Assembly: GCA_023703615.1 (NCBI GenBank)
Contig: CP097971.1
Location: forward strand, 1,134,224-1,198,223
Length of the DNA stretch: 64,000 bases
Origin: SAR86 cluster bacterium
GTDB taxonomy: Bacteria; Pseudomonadota; Gammaproteobacteria; Magnimaribacterales; D2472
Direction of reading: 5' to 3'
The notes under the pieces were generated by a model. That model made no database searches, was not told the origin of the DNA, and saw nothing but the letters and a program-made list of their open reading frames with translations. The position numbers and the translations under genes are program-made. Of this stretch, positions 18,692 through 63,935 are shown piece after piece. Position 1 is the first letter of the stretch, and each line of letters begins with the position of its first letter.

Positions 18692-20119
18692 GGAGTTTTG
18701 AATGTAATCTCTTCTCAATGCTAAATTTTTAACTCTTATTTCTTCGTTCTCTGTATATTTCAACCAATTATTTGCCGTTCCTTTAATTTTCTTGTCTTTG
18801 TCTCTGGCTGCTATTCTAAATTGTTTTCTTGCTTCATCGAATTCTTGAAGTTCAAAATATGCTTGACCAAGAGTCAAGTATACTTGAGATAGTTTTTTGC
18901 CTTCTATCTTACCCTTTTTTAAACCTAATTTTATTGCTGTTACAGCATCATCAATTCTATCTTCTGATAAGTATAAATTCCCCAATAAAACATATGGTTC
19001 TCCATCTTTCGCCAACTTTGCAGCTCTCTCTAAGACAGGTATGGCTTCATTAATCTCTTGTGCCATTCTCCATGCATCTGCAAGAAGTCTTAGATTTTTT
19101 TCAGTATCTTTTACAACAGGAACTATTTTTTCTTCTTTTGTCTTTTCATCTACTATCGTAATTTTTTTATTCTGACCTGATACCAAAACTTTAGCTGCCC
19201 AATAAGGATTTTCATTTAGAAGTAATAATTGCGTTAATGCTAAATATTCGGATTCTTTGTTCAAAAAATCTTTTGCATGTGCAGCTTTTAAAGTAATCAT
19301 ATAATCTCTTTCTCGATTTAATCTAGCGTATGACCCACCAAGTTGAATAAAGTAAAGTTTTTTTGGGTATAGATTTACAAGAATCTCATAAATATCAACT
19401 TGCCTTAGTAGAGAATCTTTCTCTCCTATTTCAGCTTTTAATTCTTCAATATTTGCTGCTAGCAATACATACCAATTTTCTTTAGGTTTATAGCCCTCAA
19501 CTTCTTCAGCAAGCTGTATTGCTTTTTCGATAGCAGACATAGATTTTTTATGATCTTCTAACTGAAAATAAGCTTGTCCTAAAATACCCCAAGATTGTGC
19601 AGTAACTGTTTCAACTTCAGACATCCAATCTAAAATAAATTCTACACCTTTCCTATAGTTTCCTTGAACCATATAAAGCTGACCCATTGTTAATAATGCT
19701 TGCACTCTTATTGGAATAGTAACTTCTGGCTCAGAAATTGTTTTCTCATATGCTTGAATTGCTTGATCATATTTTTCATCTGAAAAATATACGTAACCCC
19801 AAGCATTCCACATGACAGATCTATCGTAACTTTTTAAATTTGCTGAATCATTTCTTAGCTCAGTAAGAATATTGGTAACTGTTTCCATATCTGGATCAAG
19901 ATCACCTACATCATTTACTCTTTCGAGAGCTTCATATACTTTTGCCATTTTTTTTGCTGTAGACGATTGTAATGCCCTTGCTTTTCTGTATTTAATTTCT
20001 TTTTTTGGTTTTTCAGATGCTTCTTGAGCCTGAATATTCGACGCAACAAATAAGAAAGAGCCACTAAAAATAATTAGTGAAAAAAAGATATAAATAAATT
20101 GATTCTTTAAATTAATCAT
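18686..20119 (-). CDS. TPR-repeat periplasmic protein of the TonB operon (TtpD-like)
   Basis: Signal peptide (..QAQEA), multiple TPR-like helices; last gene of the ttp-exb-tonB operon. Confidence 0.8.
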   Translation of the reverse strand: MINLKNQFIYIFFSLIIFSGSFLFVASNIQAQEASEKPKKEIKYRKARALQSSTAKKMAKVYEALERVNDVGDLDPDMETVTNILTELRNDSANLKSYDRSVMWNAWGYVYFSDEKYDQAIQAYEKTISEPEVTIPIRVQALLTMGQLYMVQGNYRKGVEFILDWMSEVETVTAQSWGILGQAYFQLEDHKKSMSAIEKAIQLAEEVEGYKPKENWYVLLAANIEELKAEIGEKDSLLRQVDIYEILVNLYPKKLYFIQLGGSYARLNRERDYMITLKAAHAKDFLNKESEYLALTQLLLLNENPYWAAKVLVSGQNKKITIVDEKTKEEKIVPVVKDTEKNLRLLADAWRMAQEINEAIPVLERAAKLAKDGEPYVLLGNLYLSEDRIDDAVTAIKLGLKKGKIEGKKLSQVYLTLGQAYFELQEFDEARKQFRIAARDKDKKIKGTANNWLKYTENEEIRVKNLALRRDYIQNSS

Positions 20120-55306: not shown

Positions 55307-55990
55307 TTATGTCCTATCTTTGAGAAGATATGGCGTATAAAGCAAATAACAAACTATTACAGCAAAAATATATAAATCAATAATATGGAAAGGTTCATTT
55401 CTCATAAAAGCTGTAACATTATTCCCGATAGGCTTTTCGATTAAGAACCAATAATTTGCAGGGGGTCCCAGTAAATAGTTTATTAAATACATAAATACAA
55501 GAAGCACGGATGCAAAGAAAAGAGCTTGATGAACATCTTTAAGATATGGTCTTTCTTTCTCAACGATAATTGCATATGAAACCACTAGGATAATAACAGT
55601 ATGTCCAATTTGATTTTGAATATATCCAACATAAGGAAAACCATAGAAAGTATCTGGCGTTAATATAGACATGCCAGCACCTGCAATTCCAAAAAAGAAA
55701 GCAAAAACAAAAAAAGGTCTTTTTTTGGTAATTAAATATGCAGCTGCAGCAAAAGTTGAAAAATCACACAAATGCAGTGGTAAGCCAAGTTTCCAATCGT
55801 CAAGTATTCCTTCTCTATAAAAATCCGTAGCTTGATTAATTATCATTATCACGATGACAATAATTGCAAAATTACGTTTAGTTTGTTCGGATGTGCCAAT
55901 AAAAAATCTTGGTAAAAAAATTATGGTAAGAGTGCATAAAGCAACAATAATTAGGTGAGATGTATCAAAGAGATTAAGTTTGCTCATCAA
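55307..55990 (-). CDS. YwaF/TIGR02206-type integral membrane protein
   Basis: LPLHLCD, G....LTPD, GH, ANYWFL..KP; multiple TM. Confidence 0.82.
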   Translation of the reverse strand: MMSKLNLFDTSHLIIVALCTLTIIFLPRFFIGTSEQTKRNFAIIVIVIMIINQATDFYREGILDDWKLGLPLHLCDFSTFAAAAYLITKKRPFFVFAFFFGIAGAGMSILTPDTFYGFPYVGYIQNQIGHTVIILVVSYAIIVEKERPYLKDVHQALFFASVLLVFMYLINYLLGPPANYWFLIEKPIGNNVTAFMRNEPFHIIDLYIFAVIVCYLLYTPYLLKDRT

Positions 55991-56051
55991 AAAGGAATTA
56001 TTAAATATATAAAGGCATTATAAAGTATTTAAAAAATATATCTCCATTAAT

Positions 56052-56069
56052 TGTCAAGCATACTTGACA
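56052..56069. promoter_or_regulatory. Palindromic operator overlapping a -35 box (site 1)
   Basis: TGTCAAG-CATA-CTTGACA; right arm TTGACA (56064-69), 16-bp spacer, TATATT (56086-91); 51 bp upstream of ATG 56121. Confidence 0.7.
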
Positions 56070-56120
56070 TTTTATTTTCTTCAATTATATTGATATTACA
56101 TAATTTTAAAGGATTTAAAT

Positions 56121-56600
56121 ATGGCAAAAATTACATTTGGTGGAATGTGGGTAGATATAGAGTCTTTAGAAGGCAAAGATAAGTCATATTGGATTGCTTG
56201 CTTAATTTTTTCAATAATAGCAGGAATGTGTTTTGGCGTTATATTGGGTTTTACTTCAGAGAGTTGGCTTTTCGAAGCCGATGTTGATAGAACAAATGAA
56301 GTTTCTGATATTTATAAAGAAAATAGCTGGCTTTTGTATTTAGCAATAGCTGCTGTTATTTCAACATTTATTGCTGGGTATACCTATATAAAAGTTCTAG
56401 TTAATCAAGATGACTTATTTAAAAAATATAATGAAATGAGTATGATTGGTGGTGCATGCGGTTTTGTATTTATTGGTGTACCAATCGCGGTGCTATCACC
56501 TTTTATTGGATACTCACCGAACTTTTTTGATTTTTTCCTAACATTTGCTGTAGGCTCTATAATAAATGGTTATAGGTTTAGTAAGAAATATCTTAATTAA
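56121..56600 (+). CDS. Hypothetical membrane protein co-transcribed with XRE regulator
   Basis: About 4 TM, QDDL.KK motif between helices, AAGGA RBS, 8 bp before the HTH gene. Confidence 0.75.
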   Translation: MAKITFGGMWVDIESLEGKDKSYWIACLIFSIIAGMCFGVILGFTSESWLFEADVDRTNEVSDIYKENSWLLYLAIAAVISTFIAGYTYIKVLVNQDDLFKKYNEMSMIGGACGFVFIGVPIAVLSPFIGYSPNFFDFFLTFAVGSIINGYRFSKKYLN

Positions 56601-56608
56601 ATACCATA

Positions 56609-56809
56609 ATGAAAAATAACATTAAAGAGCTTAGGGCTAGCATTGCAATTAGTCAAAGTGATCTAGCGAAATCTTTGAATGTTAGTAGGCAAACAATTAA
56701 TTCAATTGAAAATGGTAAATTTGATCCATCATTGACCCTCGCGTTAAAACTAATAAAATATTTTAATAAGCCTTTAGATTCTATTTTTAAATACGAAGAT
56801 AGTCTTTAA
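56609..56809 (+). CDS. Single-domain XRE/HTH_3 transcriptional regulator
   Basis: N.IKELR.....SQ.DLA..L.VSRQTINSIE.GKFDPSL.LALKL..YF. Confidence 0.93.
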   Translation: MKNNIKELRASIAISQSDLAKSLNVSRQTINSIENGKFDPSLTLALKLIKYFNKPLDSIFKYEDSL

Positions 56810-57569
56810 TTAAATTTATTTTTTTTGTGCCCCCGAAATAGCTCACTTCATTAGCATCTAAGATATCTAAACTTTTCTGTAGGCCCTTTTTTGCCTTTGG
56901 AAAATTATGGATTGCGCTAAGTGGTTGAAAAATTACATTTATAGTAAATAAAGAAAAGTCTTCATGGAATCTACATATTGTTTCTTTTTCAGATCTAATA
57001 AACCAACTGGAGGGATTAGTCTCTAGAGAATCCTCCTCATTTAGATGAAACCTTTTAGTGTCACCGTGAATTAACCAGTTTTGTCTGGCAAAAGGTTTCT
57101 TCAAGGGTGACTGTTTTATAAATGTTTCTATATGAGAACCAATTTTTTTGTTTAAAGAAATTACAGGTTTATGAATATCTCTTAAGGGTTTTCCTATTTT
57201 TGTTTTTACATTCCAGTAGCTTGGCGAACAAATGCTGGCAGCTATCATCCTCTGATCTCCATTTGCTTCTATTAAACATAAATCATCTTGAATACATAAA
57301 CCAATGTCAGCTATTAAATCTTTATATAAAGGCTTTTTAATTTTAAAAAATTTGCCAAGTTCTAATTGCGCATCTAAAGAATCTTTGGTTGCAGCAACTA
57401 CTTGATCGTATTTATTTTTCAGGAGTTTTTTTTTATGCTCAAGAATTTGACCATTGATTGGCCTATCAATCCATGTATCAAAATGTATTGGATGAAGACC
57501 AAGCTTATATTTTTTATTGCCATTTCCCCATGGAGGACTTCTCCAAAAACTTGAATCGATTTGTAGCAA
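56787..57569 (-). CDS. DUF3445 / heme-dependent oxidative N-demethylase alpha-subunit-like protein
   Basis: LGL.PI....W, QDDLCL, C.PS.W....KIGKPL..IH.PV, F.RQNW, R.E.ET..R, LFTI. Confidence 0.8.
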   Translation of the reverse strand: MLQIDSSFWRSPPWGNGNKKYKLGLHPIHFDTWIDRPINGQILEHKKKLLKNKYDQVVAATKDSLDAQLELGKFFKIKKPLYKDLIADIGLCIQDDLCLIEANGDQRMIAASICSPSYWNVKTKIGKPLRDIHKPVISLNKKIGSHIETFIKQSPLKKPFARQNWLIHGDTKRFHLNEEDSLETNPSSWFIRSEKETICRFHEDFSLFTINVIFQPLSAIHNFPKAKKGLQKSLDILDANEVSYFGGTKKINLIKDYLRI

Positions 57570-57589
57570 AACTGTTCCTTATAAAATTT

Positions 57590-57895
57590 CTAAAAAATCT
57601 TATGTTTACCCCTTATGATTTCTAGGTACATAACATGATCCGCTATAAGACTATACAAAGGATATTTGAATGTTGCCGGTTTATTTTTTTCGATAAAAAA
57701 ATGGCTTATCCAAGCAAATCCATAACCACTAAACAATGCAACTAAAAGAAAGAAATAGTTTAATGTAATAAAAAATAAAACTAAAAAAGATAAAGAGAAT
57801 GTGGTTCCAATAAAATGATAAAGCTTTGTTTTCTTCTCTTTATGTTCACTTAAGTAAAATGGGTAAAAATCCCTAAAATTATTATACTTTTCCAT
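57590..57895 (-). CDS. DUF962/Mpo1-like membrane protein
   Basis: F.DFYPFYL.EH, LYHFIGT, GYGFAW.SHFFIEKNKPATFKYPLYSL..D. True start is ATG 57895 (TAATG overlap), not 58036. Confidence 0.88.
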   Translation of the reverse strand: MEKYNNFRDFYPFYLSEHKEKKTKLYHFIGTTFSLSFLVLFFITLNYFFLLVALFSGYGFAWISHFFIEKNKPATFKYPLYSLIADHVMYLEIIRGKHKIF

Positions 57896-58218
57896 TAATG
57901 ACCTCCATACGCATTTACTAGAATAACGCCATTTACTATTAGAAACAAACCCAAAATAGATTGCCAGCTCAAGGTCTGTGAATAAAGATAATATGAAAGG
58001 ATTGCTATTAAAAAAACTCCCAAGCCGCTCCAACATGCATACACTATTGCTAAAGGTATTTCTTTCAAAGCTATTGTTAAAAAATAAAAAGATAAAATAT
58101 ACAAAGCCGATAGAATCACGGTAGGAATTATTTTTGTAAATTGTGCGCTAATTGGAAGAAGTAAAGTACCGGTTACTTCAAATAAAATAGCTAAAGTTAG
58201 AGCTGCATATGCAGACAT
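57895..58218 (-). CDS. SMR family small multidrug transporter (EmrE/Qac-like)
   Basis: 4 TM, conserved membrane Glu (AILFEV), YACWSGLG, GLFLI..GV. Confidence 0.92.
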   Translation of the reverse strand: MSAYAALTLAILFEVTGTLLLPISAQFTKIIPTVILSALYILSFYFLTIALKEIPLAIVYACWSGLGVFLIAILSYYLYSQTLSWQSILGLFLIVNGVILVNAYGGH

Positions 58219-58532
58219 TAATCTCTTGGTGGTAACCCGTTAATTCTTGTTAATGTAATTGTAGTTGAAGCTCTTCTAAATTTACTAATCTCTTTATAAT
58301 CAGAATCATCCCACCAAGCATCTGCTTTTTCGGCAGACGGAAAGCTAAAAAGTATAACTCTGTCTTGCTCAATTGGACTGTCGCCTTCAACGTGAATAGG
58401 ATTATCATCAAATGTTATAAATTCTCCATCATACTTTTTTAAAATAGGAAAAAATCCTTTTTCATACTTTCGATAGGTTTCAGCGTCATGGATTTTTATA
58501 TTTACAATATAATAAACTTTTGTATCGCTCAT
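58218..58532 (-). CDS. DUF1330 domain protein
   Basis: D...Y..Y......L.KY.GEF, VEG, ..FSFPS...A.AWW.D.DY....K.R. Confidence 0.85.
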   Translation of the reverse strand: MSDTKVYYIVNIKIHDAETYRKYEKGFFPILKKYDGEFITFDDNPIHVEGDSPIEQDRVILFSFPSAEKADAWWDDSDYKEISKFRRASTTITLTRINGLPPRD

Positions 58533-58555
58533 ATTTGCTCCTTATTTATAAATTT

Positions 58556-59164
58556 TTATTCTGGAGCAGCAGAAGGCTGATAATCATAATAACCATCCAA
58601 AGGAATCATTAGGTGGACAAATTTTGTTCCTTTAAACATAACGTATGGCGCACCAGTAGTATAGTCAGTGGTTTGACCATCTAGGCTTGATGGATCTTTT
58701 GGCATTAACATTATGTGAGCACCAGATTCAATGTAATGTTTATGACCAGCATCTTTTTGACCATCAGTATAAGGTTTAAAATTATCAACGCCTAAGTCGC
58801 CATGTTTCATCCAAATCCAACCGTCGCTTTCTAATTTAGGAGTCGTATCTGATATGTATGCTTCTACCCATGCAACTGCATTTGGATCTGAACAAGCTGC
58901 AGCTGAAGCATGTGCATCTTCATATCCACCTTCAGGCATCGGCACAAGCGGTCTGCATGTCCACCCATTTGAACCTTCTCTTAGAACCTCGCCTGAAGCA
59001 CTTATAACTGTTGCATAATCACCGATAAATGCCGGCGCGGCACTAGTATATGCTTTTAACTGCCAGTCTGAAGAATTACCAGCATTTTTATGATCGTCCG
59101 CGATTAAACTAACAGCAAAAATGATAAATAATAGACCTAAAATAAAATTTGTTTTTATACTCAT
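58556..59164 (-). CDS. Secreted hypothetical protein
   Basis: Signal peptide (..LIADDH), AAP.FI...ATV, LREGSNGWTC, M.HGD, HIML, P.VM..GT...HLMIP; AAGGAG RBS. Confidence 0.8.
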   Translation of the reverse strand: MSIKTNFILGLLFIIFAVSLIADDHKNAGNSSDWQLKAYTSAAPAFIGDYATVISASGEVLREGSNGWTCRPLVPMPEGGYEDAHASAAACSDPNAVAWVEAYISDTTPKLESDGWIWMKHGDLGVDNFKPYTDGQKDAGHKHYIESGAHIMLMPKDPSSLDGQTTDYTTGAPYVMFKGTKFVHLMIPLDGYYDYQPSAAPE

Positions 59165-59240
59165 ACATCTCTCCTTTATTTAAAAATATAATGTCATTTA
59201 ATATTTAGTATTTCAAGAATATTCGAACAAAAAATGGGTA

Positions 59241-62024
59241 TTATTGCCAACTAAACCAAGGTGATTCTGAAAAATCATCTCCTTTAATTTGAACTGTTGT
59301 ATTCATATAGTTACCTTGAATAAAAAAGTCATTTATCAAATTGGTAAGGTCTTGTTTTGTAGTATTTTCTAAATATTCTTTTGCCTTTTGTTTTGTATCA
59401 AAAGAATAGTTTCCTTCTCCCCAATCAGCAAAATATTGTGATGCTTCTATTCCTAAATTTTCAGGGATTTTGTTCATTTCGTCTAGAAGTGCTTTTTTAG
59501 TATTCTCTACTGTAGAATCTGGAAGTTGATCAAAAGCAACAACAAAACTATATATGAAACCCATAACTTTTTCTTTTAGATCTTTAAGATTTGTATTGTC
59601 ACTTACTATAAGCATTGATAGAGTTGGATATTCGTTTGTTTCACTGTCAAAACTACTAGCAATATAACCAACTTCTTGTAAAGTTCTCAATTCATTAAAA
59701 AAAGTTGGTCGCATTAATCTATTTATTAAGTTCAGTTGGATGCTTATTTCTTCTGATTTGACTGGATATACATAATTATCTAGCAATCCAACTCCGTCCT
59801 TAGAAATAGAAACTTTTTTCATTCTTGCTGTTCCGGTCTTTACTGAAAAATCTGGTATATCTCTCCAGTGTATTTTTTGAGAAGTATCTCCAATTATATT
59901 TCTTGCACTTTTTGCAAAATTTACAACCTCTGATGGATCATAATTACCATACGCATAGATATCTAAAAAGATTGAGTTAGTAAATTCTTGATAAATTCTT
60001 TGCACATCCTCATACGTAATTTTTTTTGTAGCTTCTATGTTTTCTTTAGTTGTCCATTTTTGAGTTTTATTAATCAAAGCATCATGCACAAAAAGTTGAG
60101 AACTGATATCGTCTTCTTCTATTGATTCATATTGATCCAATAAAAATTCTTTTGCATTTTTTAATTCCCAGTCCTTAATCTCAAATTCCATTAATTTAGA
60201 TATTAAATCATTTGCATATCCAATCTGTCGCATTGATCTGCCCGACATAAAGAAACCTATATTTCCATAATTATCTGGATTTGGAAGAATACTCACTCCT
60301 CCACCTTGATATGCTTTTTGTAGAATTCTTCTGTTTGATTTTATAAAATGATAAAAAATTATTCCCATAGCTGCGTCAATTTCAGCAGTATTTGAAAAAA
60401 TTGGAGACATCATATTAATTGACATCAAACCTTTGTTATTTTTATGGTTAATGCTTTGAGAAAGATAAGCTTGCACACCCTCATTAAAATAAACTTTCTG
60501 AGGAATTTCATAATCACTTGAAGCTATTACATTTTCATTTGGTTCATCTAAAAGAATTATCATTGGTTCTGGGAGTTTTAATGAGGCTATACCAGTTTTC
60601 CATCTAGAAATGTCTTCAGCTGGTATTGGTTCAGTTCGATAGGAACCATCAGCATATTTTAATTCAATATCAGCATTTTCTTCTGTACTTAGATGATAGA
60701 TCCTTACAAACTCAGGTTTAAGTTGTGACATAAGATCTTTGATAGCTTGTTCATCATACTCTTCTGTTAGATAACTATAATCGATTAAATTTTCTACTGG
60801 CACATCAAATATTTGACTTCCAAAACCTACAGCAACAGCTAGAGCTCTTGGAGCAGATAAATCTATAAAGTTCCTTTCGTTAATAGCTTTAATTTCATCA
60901 AAATACTCTTTTATAATTCCATCTGACTGAATTAAATTTAAATATTCAAAAGTTAAATCCAAAATAAGGTTCTTATTTTCAACACCCTTTTCTGTGAGAA
61001 TATAATCAATAAATGCTGATCCATCGTATCCCCATACTTTAGATTGTATTGATGCATTACCAGATTCTATAAAACCTTCATCAACTAAGTACGACATCAA
61101 GGTATTTTCTTCTTGGGAATTTAATAACTTTTCAACAAAAGAGTTTGGTTTGGATTTCCATTCAGATGAATTATCTCTTATGGGAAATTCTAACGATAGA
61201 CTTGGTGAACCAGCTCTTTTTTTAATATAAATATTTTTTAAAAGATTTGAAGAAAGATAAGCTTTCTCTTTAGTTAAAGGTCTCTCGACTTTTTTATTTT
61301 TTATTCCTTCAAAATACTTTCTTGCTAAACTTTTTAATTCTCTTGGTGATTGATTTCCAACTAACACAAGTTTCATCAAATTAGCTGAATAATATTTGTT
61401 ATAAAAATCTTTCAGTGAAGCTAGAAGTTGCTCTCTATCATCTGAGAGTGTATCTTTATTTCCAACTCCAAGATTTGTTTTTGGATGGTCAGGATTTCCT
61501 GTCATTGCTGCTGTTCTTTGTGTTACAAACTGATCGGTTTGTCTTGCAAGAAGCCATTCAGAATTAACTGCTGAAATTTCTTTTTCAACCATTGATGGGT
61601 CAAAGATAGGCGCCTTGATTGCAGCACTTAATCTATCAAGACCTGCTTCAAATTTATCACTATTAATTGAAAACAAATAAGTAGTTTGCTCTGTTGCAGT
61701 AAAAGCGTTAGTGCTTCCACCGTTCTCACTTATAAACTGCATATATTCATTCGGTTTTTTATATTTTTTGGAACCCATAAAAATCATGTGTTCTAAATAG
61801 TGAGCTATTCCTTGAGCGTCATCTGGATCTTGAAACTGACCAACCCCAACACTCAGAGTTGCTGCAGATGTTGCTAAATTTTTATCGCTAACTGTAACAA
61901 CCTCAATTCCATTTTTTAATGTAAAAGTTCCGTATTCTCTAGTATCACTTGGTGCTTTGTTAATAGAAGCACTAATTGATAATGTAAAAAAGAATAAAAG
62001 GAATAAGGATTTTGATCTAATCAT
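59241..62024 (-). CDS. M16A (insulinase/pitrilysin) family zinc metallopeptidase, secreted
   Basis: Signal peptide, inverted zinc motif GIAHYLEHMIFMGS, NAFT..E.T.Y, KEI.AV.SE, FFNELRT.Q..GY. Confidence 0.93.
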   Translation of the reverse strand: MIRSKSLFLLFFFTLSISASINKAPSDTREYGTFTLKNGIEVVTVSDKNLATSAATLSVGVGQFQDPDDAQGIAHYLEHMIFMGSKKYKKPNEYMQFISENGGSTNAFTATEQTTYLFSINSDKFEAGLDRLSAAIKAPIFDPSMVEKEISAVNSEWLLARQTDQFVTQRTAAMTGNPDHPKTNLGVGNKDTLSDDREQLLASLKDFYNKYYSANLMKLVLVGNQSPRELKSLARKYFEGIKNKKVERPLTKEKAYLSSNLLKNIYIKKRAGSPSLSLEFPIRDNSSEWKSKPNSFVEKLLNSQEENTLMSYLVDEGFIESGNASIQSKVWGYDGSAFIDYILTEKGVENKNLILDLTFEYLNLIQSDGIIKEYFDEIKAINERNFIDLSAPRALAVAVGFGSQIFDVPVENLIDYSYLTEEYDEQAIKDLMSQLKPEFVRIYHLSTEENADIELKYADGSYRTEPIPAEDISRWKTGIASLKLPEPMIILLDEPNENVIASSDYEIPQKVYFNEGVQAYLSQSINHKNNKGLMSINMMSPIFSNTAEIDAAMGIIFYHFIKSNRRILQKAYQGGGVSILPNPDNYGNIGFFMSGRSMRQIGYANDLISKLMEFEIKDWELKNAKEFLLDQYESIEEDDISSQLFVHDALINKTQKWTTKENIEATKKITYEDVQRIYQEFTNSIFLDIYAYGNYDPSEVVNFAKSARNIIGDTSQKIHWRDIPDFSVKTGTARMKKVSISKDGVGLLDNYVYPVKSEEISIQLNLINRLMRPTFFNELRTLQEVGYIASSFDSETNEYPTLSMLIVSDNTNLKDLKEKVMGFIYSFVVAFDQLPDSTVENTKKALLDEMNKIPENLGIEASQYFADWGEGNYSFDTKQKAKEYLENTTKQDLTNLINDFFIQGNYMNTTVQIKGDDFSESPWFSWQ

Positions 62025-62068
62025 ATGTATTTTTGTTATGTTATTTAATTTTGAAATACAAAGATAAA

Positions 62069-62090
62069 TATGTCAAGTATATTTGACATA
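62069..62090. promoter_or_regulatory. Palindromic operator overlapping a -35 box (site 2)
   Basis: TATGTCAA-GTATAT-TTGACATA; minus-strand TTGACA (62076-71), 17-bp spacer, CAAAAT; 46 bp upstream of the M16 peptidase ATG. Confidence 0.7.
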
Positions 62091-62095
62091 TGAGA

Positions 62096-62929
62096 TTATT
62101 CTTTTGTTTTTGGTGGCCCAAAAAATAAATACAACGATTCTTTTATATTATTTGAATTCTTGATGTCTTTAAGAATGTTGCTCCACTCCATAAAAGTAAT
62201 CTTGATCGGATTAAATGTTTTAACATTTTTTACTAGGCCATACTTTACGGATTCTTTTTCAGGCTCAAAAGTTCCAAACATACGGTCCCATACAATCAAT
62301 AAGTTTCCATAGTTTTTATCAATATATTGCTTATTTGAGCCATGATGAACACGATGATGTGAAGGTGTATTGAAGATATATTCAAATGGGCCTAGGTTTT
62401 TAATTATTTGAGTATGGCCTACTATCCCCCACAAAGTACTTATGACTCCAGCAATTGCAATAATTGTTGGATCAATGCCAACAATTGGTAAAAAAATAAA
62501 AAAGGGAATTTTTGAAATTGGCCCAAGCCAAGCTTGTCTAAAAGATACTGCAAAATTCATTTCTTCACTAGAATGATGTGACATATGCACAGCCCACAAA
62601 AAACGACTCCTATGAGATACGCGGTGATAAAAATAGAATACTAAATCTATCAAAACGAAAGCTAAAATCCACATCATCCAAATAGGTATTAATGAGCTAA
62701 GATCAAGTATTCTGTATTGATACAAATATATGTGAATTGCCAGAGTAATGCCTTTTACTAGAAATACCATTAAAATATTTCCAGTTAAAAGTCCGATAGT
62801 GCATAGAGTATCGTTTTTTCTGTATAGCTTCTTATTATTTAAACTTGAAAATAGTACTTCAATTAAAATAAATACAATTACTATTGGTAGGCCAATAAGA
62901 TATACTTGTTGATAGGTCAATTCTGTCAT
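62096..62929 (-). CDS. Sterol desaturase/fatty-acid hydroxylase family, alkylglycerol monooxygenase-like
   Basis: His boxes HRVSH, HMSHH, HHRVHH; N.AVSFRQ; YIDKNYG..LI.WDRMFGTF. Confidence 0.88.
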   Translation of the reverse strand: MTELTYQQVYLIGLPIVIVFILIEVLFSSLNNKKLYRKNDTLCTIGLLTGNILMVFLVKGITLAIHIYLYQYRILDLSSLIPIWMMWILAFVLIDLVFYFYHRVSHRSRFLWAVHMSHHSSEEMNFAVSFRQAWLGPISKIPFFIFLPIVGIDPTIIAIAGVISTLWGIVGHTQIIKNLGPFEYIFNTPSHHRVHHGSNKQYIDKNYGNLLIVWDRMFGTFEPEKESVKYGLVKNVKTFNPIKITFMEWSNILKDIKNSNNIKESLYLFFGPPKTKE

Positions 62930-62996
62930 TTTTAATACTAGTTATCTAACTTATATAAATTCGAATTGAATATTGTAAATTATTAATAAGGTCATT

Positions 62997-63935
62997 TTGA
63001 ATATTTCAACAAAATATATCTTGCTTACAGTTTTCTTATCTACAAATATATTTGCAGGCTTGTCGATTGGATATATCGAAGAAGACTATGTAAGTGTCAA
63101 TGATGACTTGGATAGAAGGATACAGATTTATTATCCATTTGAAAAAAAAATCGACTCGAATACTACATTTATAATCATGAACGACGGAGAAGAGTTGTTT
63201 TATGAAAAAGATTCATGGCATGGAAAAGCATGGAATATCGATGACAGCTTTAAAAGATTAAAAGAATCTGGGTATCAATTAAACATTGTTGTTGTTGCAA
63301 TAGATAGTGCAAGAAGAGCAAAGGGAGGGATAATTGATGAGACAAGAAGATACTCAGAATATTTCCCAAAAGATGCTATTCCTTTTTTTAAAACAGGTTT
63401 TAAAAAATATATTTATAGTTCATTCATAGATATCCCAAAAATGGATTATCTCGAATTTCTTGAAAAGAAAATAGTGCCTTATATTGAAAATAAATTTAAT
63501 GTGACTTTAAATAATACTAATTTAGGAATAATTGGTGCAAGTATGGGTGGTTTAAATGCTATAAACGCTCAATTAGAGTATCCTGATTTATTCGGTTTTG
63601 CTGGATGTATTTCGACACACTGGATAGGAATAAAAATATCTGAATATTTAGCTTTACCATTTAGTAAAAAGATATCTGGTGATCCAAACACTACAAGCGC
63701 AATTATCAAATATATCAAGTCAAAATCTGAAGTTTTAAATGATCAGAAACTTTATTTTGATCATGGTAGTGAAGGTTTTGATCGTTACTATTCAAAGCCT
63801 CAAGAACAGATTAATCAAATATTTGATATTAACAACATTAACTACGATTATAAAAAGTTTGAAGGTGATGATCATGAGCCTAAATATTTTGGCAGAAGAT
63901 TTGATAACATTCTAATTTATTTATTAGATGTATAA
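62997..63935 (+). CDS. Secreted alpha/beta-hydrolase (putative esterase, IroE/Fes-like)
   Basis: TTG start with signal peptide, MNDG..LF, nucleophile elbow GASMGG, YFDHG, HE..YF..RF. Confidence 0.85.
   Translation: MNISTKYILLTVFLSTNIFAGLSIGYIEEDYVSVNDDLDRRIQIYYPFEKKIDSNTTFIIMNDGEELFYEKDSWHGKAWNIDDSFKRLKESGYQLNIVVVAIDSARRAKGGIIDETRRYSEYFPKDAIPFFKTGFKKYIYSSFIDIPKMDYLEFLEKKIVPYIENKFNVTLNNTNLGIIGASMGGLNAINAQLEYPDLFGFAGCISTHWIGIKISEYLALPFSKKISGDPNTTSAIIKYIKSKSEVLNDQKLYFDHGSEGFDRYYSKPQEQINQIFDINNINYDYKKFEGDDHEPKYFGRRFDNILIYLLDV

Follow-up and report, generated by a model that had tools for sequence, protein, structure and literature searches.

SAR86 bacteria are among the most abundant heterotrophs of the surface ocean; they have very few regulators, and the control of gene expression in the group is almost uncharted. 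Here we describe a candidate regulon of one SAR86 cluster bacterium, with a window of 64,000 nucleotides (positions 1,134,224 to 1,198,223 of contig CP097971.1, assembly GCA_023703615.1) as the starting point; "the window" refers to that whole stretch. The window encodes a 159-amino-acid membrane protein (TM159) and, directly after it, a 66-amino-acid helix-turn-helix protein of the HTH_3 family (XRE66), which we call the pair. XRE66 belongs to the CylR2 family of regulators, and a dimer of it probably binds an 18-bp palindrome, covers the -35 element and represses four promoters—those of its own operon, of an M16 peptidase gene, of sppA, and at position 451360 of the genome's contig (C1:451360). 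This reading is carried by the sites themselves, by their conservation, enrichment and co-occurrence with the pair, by the homology of XRE66 to CylR2, and by a half-site common to both systems. The features of the window that matter here are as follows.

56052..56069, strandless: operator O1, TGTCAAGCATACTTGACA, 18-bp palindrome in the promoter of the TM159-XRE66 operon; predicted site.
62071..62088, strandless: operator O2, TGTCAAGTATATTTGACA, 18-bp palindrome in the promoter of the M16 peptidase gene; predicted site.
56064..56091, plus strand: predicted sigma-70 promoter of the operon, with -35 TTGACA at 56064-56069 (the right arm of O1), a 16-bp spacer and -10 TATATT at 56086-56091; consensus match only.
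62048..62076, minus strand: predicted M16 promoter, with -35 TTGACA at 62076-62071 (an arm of O2), a 17-bp spacer and -10 CAAAAT at 62053-62048; consensus match only.
56121..56600, plus strand: TM159, a four-helix membrane protein with a conserved N-terminal beta-hairpin, candidate CylR1-like partner (hydropathy and AlphaFold).
56609..56809, plus strand: XRE66, CylR2 homologue and predicted binder of the palindrome (profile, structure and BLASTP matches).
59241..62024, minus strand: 927-amino-acid secreted M16A (pitrilysin-like) zinc peptidase, proposed target (Pfam, HYLEH motif and signal-peptide-like N-terminus).

An earlier note on this DNA had pointed to two near-identical palindromes and proposed that one operator serves both a membrane-protein/XRE operon and a secreted peptidase gene. 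The sequence bears out its description: the 19-mers TGTCAAGCATACTTGACAT (56052-56070) and TGTCAAGTATATTTGACAT (62071-62089) agree at 17 of 19 positions, and both palindromes are intergenic. O1 sits in the divergent gap between a gene for a TMEM164-like acyltransferase (55307-55990, minus strand) and the TM159 gene, and ends 51 bp before the TM159 ATG (56121); O2 lies within the 71 bp that separate the stop codon of a fatty-acid hydroxylase gene from the M16 start (62024, minus strand), 46 bp before the ATG, in keeping with the note's figure of about 50 bp. The gene-proximal arm of each operator is a perfect TTGACA, the -35 box that the note had seen there, with a -10-like hexamer 16-17 bp beyond it.

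The motif is rare; frequent random occurrence in intergenic DNA would have counted against the proposal. The genome is a single contig (C1) of 1,229,821 bp with 31.3% G+C, and it holds three exact matches to TGTCAA-N6-TTGACA, against 0.19 expected from an analytic first-order Markov model; O1 and O2 are the only two in the window, and all three stand 45-51 bp ahead of an ATG. With spacers of 0-5 or 7-12 between TGTCAA and TTGACA there are zero matches in the whole genome. The third copy, TGTCAAATACACTTGACA, lies outside the window at C1:771955-771972 (L001 3956-3973), 45 bp before the ATG of a 610-amino-acid protein whose two stretches matching Peptidase_S49 (E=5.4e-58) make it SppA (protease IV) of the 67K type; the promoter-like sequence TTGACA-N17-TATTAT follows. 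The motif thus marks a second envelope peptidase, beyond the view of the earlier note.

The sites of this genome were also scored with a position weight matrix (PWM) built solely on the sites of relatives, with the best match in the reversed genome as control. The scores are 29.9 for C1:451360, 26.2 for O1, 24.1 for O2, 14.5 for the sppA box and 14.2 for a match at window position 18872, with a reversed-genome maximum of 13.9. The top-scoring operator is accordingly TGTAAAGTAAACTTTACA at C1:451360-451377, again outside the window. It lies between genes for a 206-amino-acid PQQ_2/BamB-like (beta-propeller-like) protein with a Gly-rich C-terminal tail and a 335-amino-acid NAD-dependent epimerase; a homologue of the 206-amino-acid protein likewise has a box in relative G005. 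The match at 18872-18889, AGTCAAGTATACTTGAGA, is probably due to chance—it is inside a 477-amino-acid gene of an ExbB/ExbD-TonB-like cluster and scores at the level of the control—and we have set it aside.

Conservation was followed through 40 relatives (labelled G001 and so on), of which 24 are from the same family and 16 from three other families of the order; six further SAR86 genomes were checked for a box before the pair. TM159 and an XRE orthologue (at least 50% identity to XRE66, and always adjoining TM159) occur together in 16 of the 40, all of the same family, and in each of the 17 carrier genomes, the source genome included, the TM159 gene immediately precedes that of the repressor. 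The exact motif is present in one copy in each of eight relatives, seven of them in the form TGTCAAG-N4-CTTGACA, and alignment of the promoters broadens the consensus to TGTMAAGT-NN-ACTTKACA. A box of this kind precedes TM159-XRE66 in 16/16 carrying relatives and in 6/6 further genomes, often as two boxes in tandem, 17-18 bp apart. This pattern supports the autoregulation that the earlier note had proposed, as far as sequence conservation can.

Box numbers follow the presence of the pair. TGTMAAGNNNNCTTKACA was counted with at most one mismatch, and its reversed pattern served as control: carriers of the pair (17 genomes) have 81 boxes versus 20 in the control; the six genomes of the same family without it (G003, G007, G009, G011, G017 and G019) have 2 versus 3, and the 16 genomes of the three other families 12 versus 17. 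Two relatives, G002 and G013, have boxes and no detected pair; their assemblies are fragmented (92% and 87% complete), and since G013 lacks even sppA, which is otherwise near-universal, its pair locus probably fell into an assembly gap.

The boxes recur at the same kinds of gene. Orthologues of the M16 peptidase are found in only four relatives, and three of them (G015, G016 and G024) have a box upstream, which lends support, by comparison of sequences, to the earlier claim that the helix-turn-helix protein also controls the peptidase. A box is upstream of sppA in G001 (two boxes), G002, G004, G010 and G012, and among genomes with the pair it is present wherever sppA does not immediately follow the pair; the sppA upstream regions of two genomes without the pair, G003 and G019, showed no box. 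Ten other genomes have sppA directly downstream of TM159-XRE66 on the same strand, which makes TM159-XRE66-sppA the probable ancestral cluster; in the source lineage the pair would have been relocated beside the TMEM164-like gene, while sppA retained a copy of the promoter and operator. Other recurrent targets are TolC (Pfam OEP; nine genomes), a MacB-like ATP-binding cassette (ABC) ATPase (nine), S9 peptidases (seven), whose box-bearing genes are mostly divergent from a TonB-dependent receptor gene, and a 293-amino-acid HlyD-type adaptor (four). Where a box has one TTGACA and one TTTACA arm, the TTGACA arm points to the target, for example to TolC rather than to a divergent parE-like gene. 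A shared operator is supported, as first proposed; the two-target extent is not, since SppA and C1:451360 in this genome, and TolC, MacB-like, HlyD-type and S9 genes in relatives, come in addition. In other SAR86 genera the same box would control TolC, the MacB-like ATPase, the HlyD-type adaptor and S9 peptidases, and the regulon appears to be a plastic set of envelope functions for peptide degradation and efflux.

The proteins beside the operators are as the earlier note had read them. XRE66 begins 8 bp after the end of TM159 on the same strand, matches HTH_3 in Pfam (E=1e-15), and aligns over its full length with CylR2 (PDB 1utx; E=3.9e-16, residues 3-63 on 4-64). BLASTP against CylR2 of Enterococcus faecalis gives 56% identity (E=4e-23), with the VSRQTIN.IE segment conserved. 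The M16 peptidase has a four-domain architecture (Pfam Peptidase_M16, M16_C, M16_M and PqqF-like_C_4), the HxxEH zinc motif as HYLEH at residue 75, and a hydrophobic N-terminus resembling a signal peptide; its score of 488 bits against the NCBIfam pitrilysin model is below the 765-bit equivalog cut-off, so it is a member of the M16A family and not a strict PtrA equivalog. For TM159, a hydropathy scan and an AlphaFold model of moderate confidence (predicted local distance difference test score, pLDDT, 72) give four long helices and an N-terminal beta-hairpin, which is conserved (MAKIT..G.W.DI). The first loop of TM159 is acidic and its C-terminus basic, which suggests an N-in/C-in topology by the positive-inside rule, and its most conserved stretch is the N-terminal 20 residues. 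Contigs from seawater metatranscriptomes cover TM159 and XRE66 and span the gene junction; they leave the promoter gap at 55984-56162 uncovered and begin inside the TM159 gene. This coverage fits an expressed bicistronic operon, although such contigs do not map transcript ends.

TM159 belongs to no family in Pfam or NCBIfam, with only a weak, sub-threshold match to DUF996. A word-based protein search returned four relatives; an exhaustive profile search against 1.84 billion representative proteins raised the number to 59, all about 150 amino acids long or fragments. Every named relative comes from a SAR86 genome, as does TM159 itself, and on these searches the family is restricted to SAR86-like sequences.

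The earlier note had known of no described regulon of this kind; a described analogue does exist in CylR1/CylR2. CylR2 acts as a repressor that binds the cytolysin promoter, and signalling requires the membrane protein CylR1 (PMC3709268, PMC12304293), which passes on a peptide signal by an unexplained route free of phosphorelay (PMC3709268, PMC5454873, PMC12304293). Both systems have a 66-amino-acid helix-turn-helix repressor whose gene immediately follows that of a small polytopic membrane protein in the same operon. Both do without a kinase or phosphorelay (PMC3709268), and in both the half-site TGTCAAG/CTTGACA lies within the system's own promoter region; in the regulatory region of an E. 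faecalis plasmid it forms a perfect inverted repeat, TTTTGTCAAGTG-T-CACTTGACAAAA, just upstream of cylR1. The differences concern the setting. The SAR86 host is a Gram-negative, genome-streamlined marine gammaproteobacterium, unlike Enterococcus, and the SAR86 targets are dispersed envelope peptidase and efflux genes, whereas CylR1/CylR2 serves an adjacent lanthipeptide toxin cluster and is induced by the mature peptide of that cluster. No lanthipeptide or cytolysin cluster adjoins the SAR86 pair, whose neighbours are lipid-modifying enzymes. The pair is therefore a member of the CylR2 regulator family that is CylR1/CylR2-like in its working and departs from that system in two features, homology of the partner to CylR1 and the presence of a lanthipeptide cluster. 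A 2024 preprint states that the CylR1/R2-type system has so far been described solely for the enterococcal cytolysin, and our literature searches found no CylR2-like system outside Firmicutes and no SAR86 regulon; a lineage-restricted membrane partner unrelated to CylR1, a Gram-negative host and a peptidase/efflux regulon are what is new here.

The same dyad also occurs in Firmicute plasmids. An 18-bp dyad like that of SAR86 is upstream of CylR2-like genes of Clostridium estertheticum (TGTCAAGTTAGCTTGACA and TGTAAAGGATACTTGACA), Staphylococcus carnosus (TGTAAAATATATTTTACA) and Staphylococcus aureus (two boxes), and these three regulators with boxes are 47-59% identical to XRE66; a DUF3796-linked copy in B. 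cereus, 39% identical, has a different dyad. A small partner gene adjoins the CylR2-like gene in three of the four plasmids examined, the S. carnosus copy having no annotated partner, and the Firmicute partners are of differing families: CylR1, DUF3796, DUF2178 and an uncharacterised 112-amino-acid protein. The plasmid copies are annotated merely as helix-turn-helix regulators, and the literature yielded no regulon or function for them.

These loci bear on what binds the palindrome. The arms TTGACA and TTTACA are also plain -35 hexamers in AT-rich genomes, and the palindromes might accordingly be conserved promoter elements, or the sites of another factor, with the XRE gene as a bystander. We consider this very improbable: the whole 18-bp dyad is conserved, beyond the -35 arm; SAR86 boxes are confined to carriers of the pair, bar the two fragmented genomes named above; and the dyad precedes CylR2-like genes of Enterococcus, Clostridium and Staphylococcus that have no other gene in common. 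As the small regulator is the only feature shared by the Firmicute loci and SAR86, XRE66 is by far the best candidate for the binder. A dimer on TGTMAAGT-NN-ACTTKACA would mask the -35 hexamer, which is one of its arms, at its own operon and at the three other promoters, and would thus most likely repress all four.

Several points weigh against repression by XRE66 as we have drawn it. DNA binding by XRE66, repression over activation, the role of TM159 and the nature of the signal are steps that we infer. In the source genome, no operators were found at the orthologues of TolC, the MacB-like ATPase and the HlyD-type adaptor, which makes regulon membership plastic rather than stable. The upstream region of the M16 orthologue in G008 has no box, and in G015, G016 and G024 the box is about 20-27 bp from the ATG, so that its position relative to the promoter varies. 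The sppA box deviates once from the degenerate consensus (G to A, position 7), and its PWM score is near the control maximum; O2 has the mirror change (C to T, position 12), yet scores well. The half-sites are separated by N4 in SAR86 and by N5 in the cyl promoter, where the perfect repeat is reportedly the site bound in vitro, in work of Rumpel and colleagues from 2004. TM159 itself has no similarity to CylR1 (BLASTP E=0.5), on which ground we rejected homology of the two membrane partners; it has 159 amino acids and four helices, against 94 amino acids and three predicted transmembrane segments in CylR1 (PMC3709268).

A further such point concerns the direction of control. For the homologous small XRE regulator GakR an activating role is reported (bioRxiv 10.64898/2026.09.04.749385), although its inverted repeat overlaps the promoter, and the weak -10 element of the M16 promoter (CAAAAT, four of six consensus positions) could mean a need for activation. 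XRE66 might then bind the palindrome as an activator or dual regulator, for instance as a class II activator overlapping the -35 element. We regard this as improbable, given that CylR2, the closest characterised homologue, is a repressor, that a dimer bound over the perfect TTGACA arm would compete with region 4 of sigma-70, and that the tandem boxes of relatives cover entire promoters.

If XRE66 is a repressor, the question becomes what relieves it. By analogy with CylR1/CylR2, we propose that TM159, co-transcribed with XRE66, acts as a sensor or anti-repressor and relays a membrane or periplasmic signal to XRE66 without a phosphorelay, leading to derepression. The content of the regulon—SppA, M16 and S9 peptidases, TolC, MacB-like and HlyD-type proteins—together with the role of SppA in Bacillus subtilis suggests a response to peptides; plausible signals are peptides that act on the membrane or that accumulate. 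In B. subtilis, SppA confers resistance to lantibiotics and cationic peptides and belongs to the sigma-W envelope-stress regulon; its gene is accompanied by that of the membrane protein SppI (yteJ), which inhibits it (PMC7568657). Both there and, on our reading, in SAR86, an envelope-responsive regulator governs SppA along with a membrane protein; in B. subtilis that regulator is an extracytoplasmic function (ECF) sigma factor with its anti-sigma factor, in contrast to a small XRE repressor, and the analogy is functional only.

The same parallel allows another role for TM159: XRE66 would repress, TM159 would simply be one more member of the regulon, as an effector in the envelope or as a membrane partner of SppA in the manner of SppI(YteJ), and the repressor would answer a cytoplasmic ligand or nothing. 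The ancestral order TM159-XRE66-sppA, the inhibition of SppA by SppI in B. subtilis and the lack of kinship between TM159 and CylR1 are consistent with this, as is the lack of a ligand-binding domain in the 66-amino-acid XRE66. TM159 shows no similarity to B. subtilis SppI, however, and matches no RDD/SppI-like Pfam family; where the cluster has come apart, it stays with XRE66 and not with sppA (six genomes and the six further SAR86 genomes), which favours a regulatory partnership over an SppI-like role; and the Firmicute CylR2-type genes are likewise paired with small proteins of varied families, an indication that the pairing itself is functional. We give this alternative a minor but appreciable chance.

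TM159 and XRE66 could instead be a toxin-antitoxin-like addiction pair, with TM159 as a small membrane toxin and XRE66 as an antitoxin; there would then be autoregulation only, and the other sites would be due to chance. XRE66 does have sub-threshold matches to antitoxin models of the HipB, HigA and MqsA type, but the scores are far under the NCBIfam cut-offs (Y4mF 37 against 71.65 bits; HigA 29 against 47.7). No gene of a toxin family is adjacent, the pair occupies conserved chromosomal positions across nine genera rather than mobile DNA, and many genomes have the additional sites at orthologous targets. We have rejected this reading, which is hardly credible on these grounds.

Taken jointly, the observations allow a broader and more tentative proposal, which we think possible though somewhat doubtful as a whole: that kinase-free signalling of the CylR1/CylR2 type is an ancient cross-phylum module with a TGTMAAG-N4-CTTKACA box and an exchangeable membrane partner, and that its SAR86 form is a switch for envelope peptide stress. 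If so, signalling by a polytopic membrane sensor and a repressor of about 66 amino acids would be no peculiarity of an enterococcal toxin locus, and the passage of a signal from membrane protein to repressor without phosphorylation would be seen in a far broader context. What TM159 senses would be peptides that act on the membrane or accumulate, for example bacteriocins, remnants of signal peptides or peptide nutrients, and release of XRE66 from DNA would induce SppA, pitrilysin or S9 peptidases, and TolC-dependent efflux of the MacAB type. By analogy, the link to SppA suggests a peptide-defence or peptide-scavenging response in marine oligotrophs. Sequence alone gives the candidate regulon its regulator, its operator and its four promoters in this genome, and relatives widen it to a pan-regulon of envelope peptidases and efflux pumps. 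As the half-site is conserved across phyla while the partner changes, the SAR86 and Firmicute plasmid pairs are simple, non-pathogenic systems for dissecting the mechanism in E. coli. The S9 peptidase targeted in relatives has no match in the source genome, where the M16 peptidase may fill its place.

Some further observations concern the genes around the boxes. Both operators of the window lie among genes for lipid-modifying enzymes (55307-63935): a TMEM164-like acyltransferase, HODM_asu-like, an Mpo1-like 2-hydroxy-fatty-acid dioxygenase, DUF1330, an OlsE-like fatty-acid hydroxylase and an esterase. O1 is just 61 bp from the start codon of the TMEM164-like gene, a distance not kept in relatives, and in the source genome this gene could share O1. 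The sppA operator is inside the 3' end of the upstream open reading frame (ORF) for a DUF2069-like membrane protein, in the order wrbA-DUF2069-sppA; in relatives of genus g7, TM159-XRE66 is inserted exactly between the DUF2069-like gene and sppA.

Among the relatives, a secreted protein of 652-655 amino acids with no family match has a box with one mismatch, TGTAAAGTATATTTTACA, 33-43 bp ahead of its start (L076/G010 and L077/G002, site 2001; one genus). In G008 (L017, C3:115281) an exact box precedes a 152-amino-acid F420H2_quin_red-like gene, followed by a MacB-like ATPase gene and an unclassified 398-amino-acid lipoprotein-like ORF; the redox enzyme may have been recruited into an efflux operon. 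Finally, a second CylR2-like group, 39-48% identical to XRE66 and missing from the source genome, is more widespread, being found in three of the four sampled SAR86 families (G001, G006, G008, G010, G012, G013, G015, G017, G018, G020, G021, G025, G027, G028, G030, G033, G034, G036, G037 and G039).

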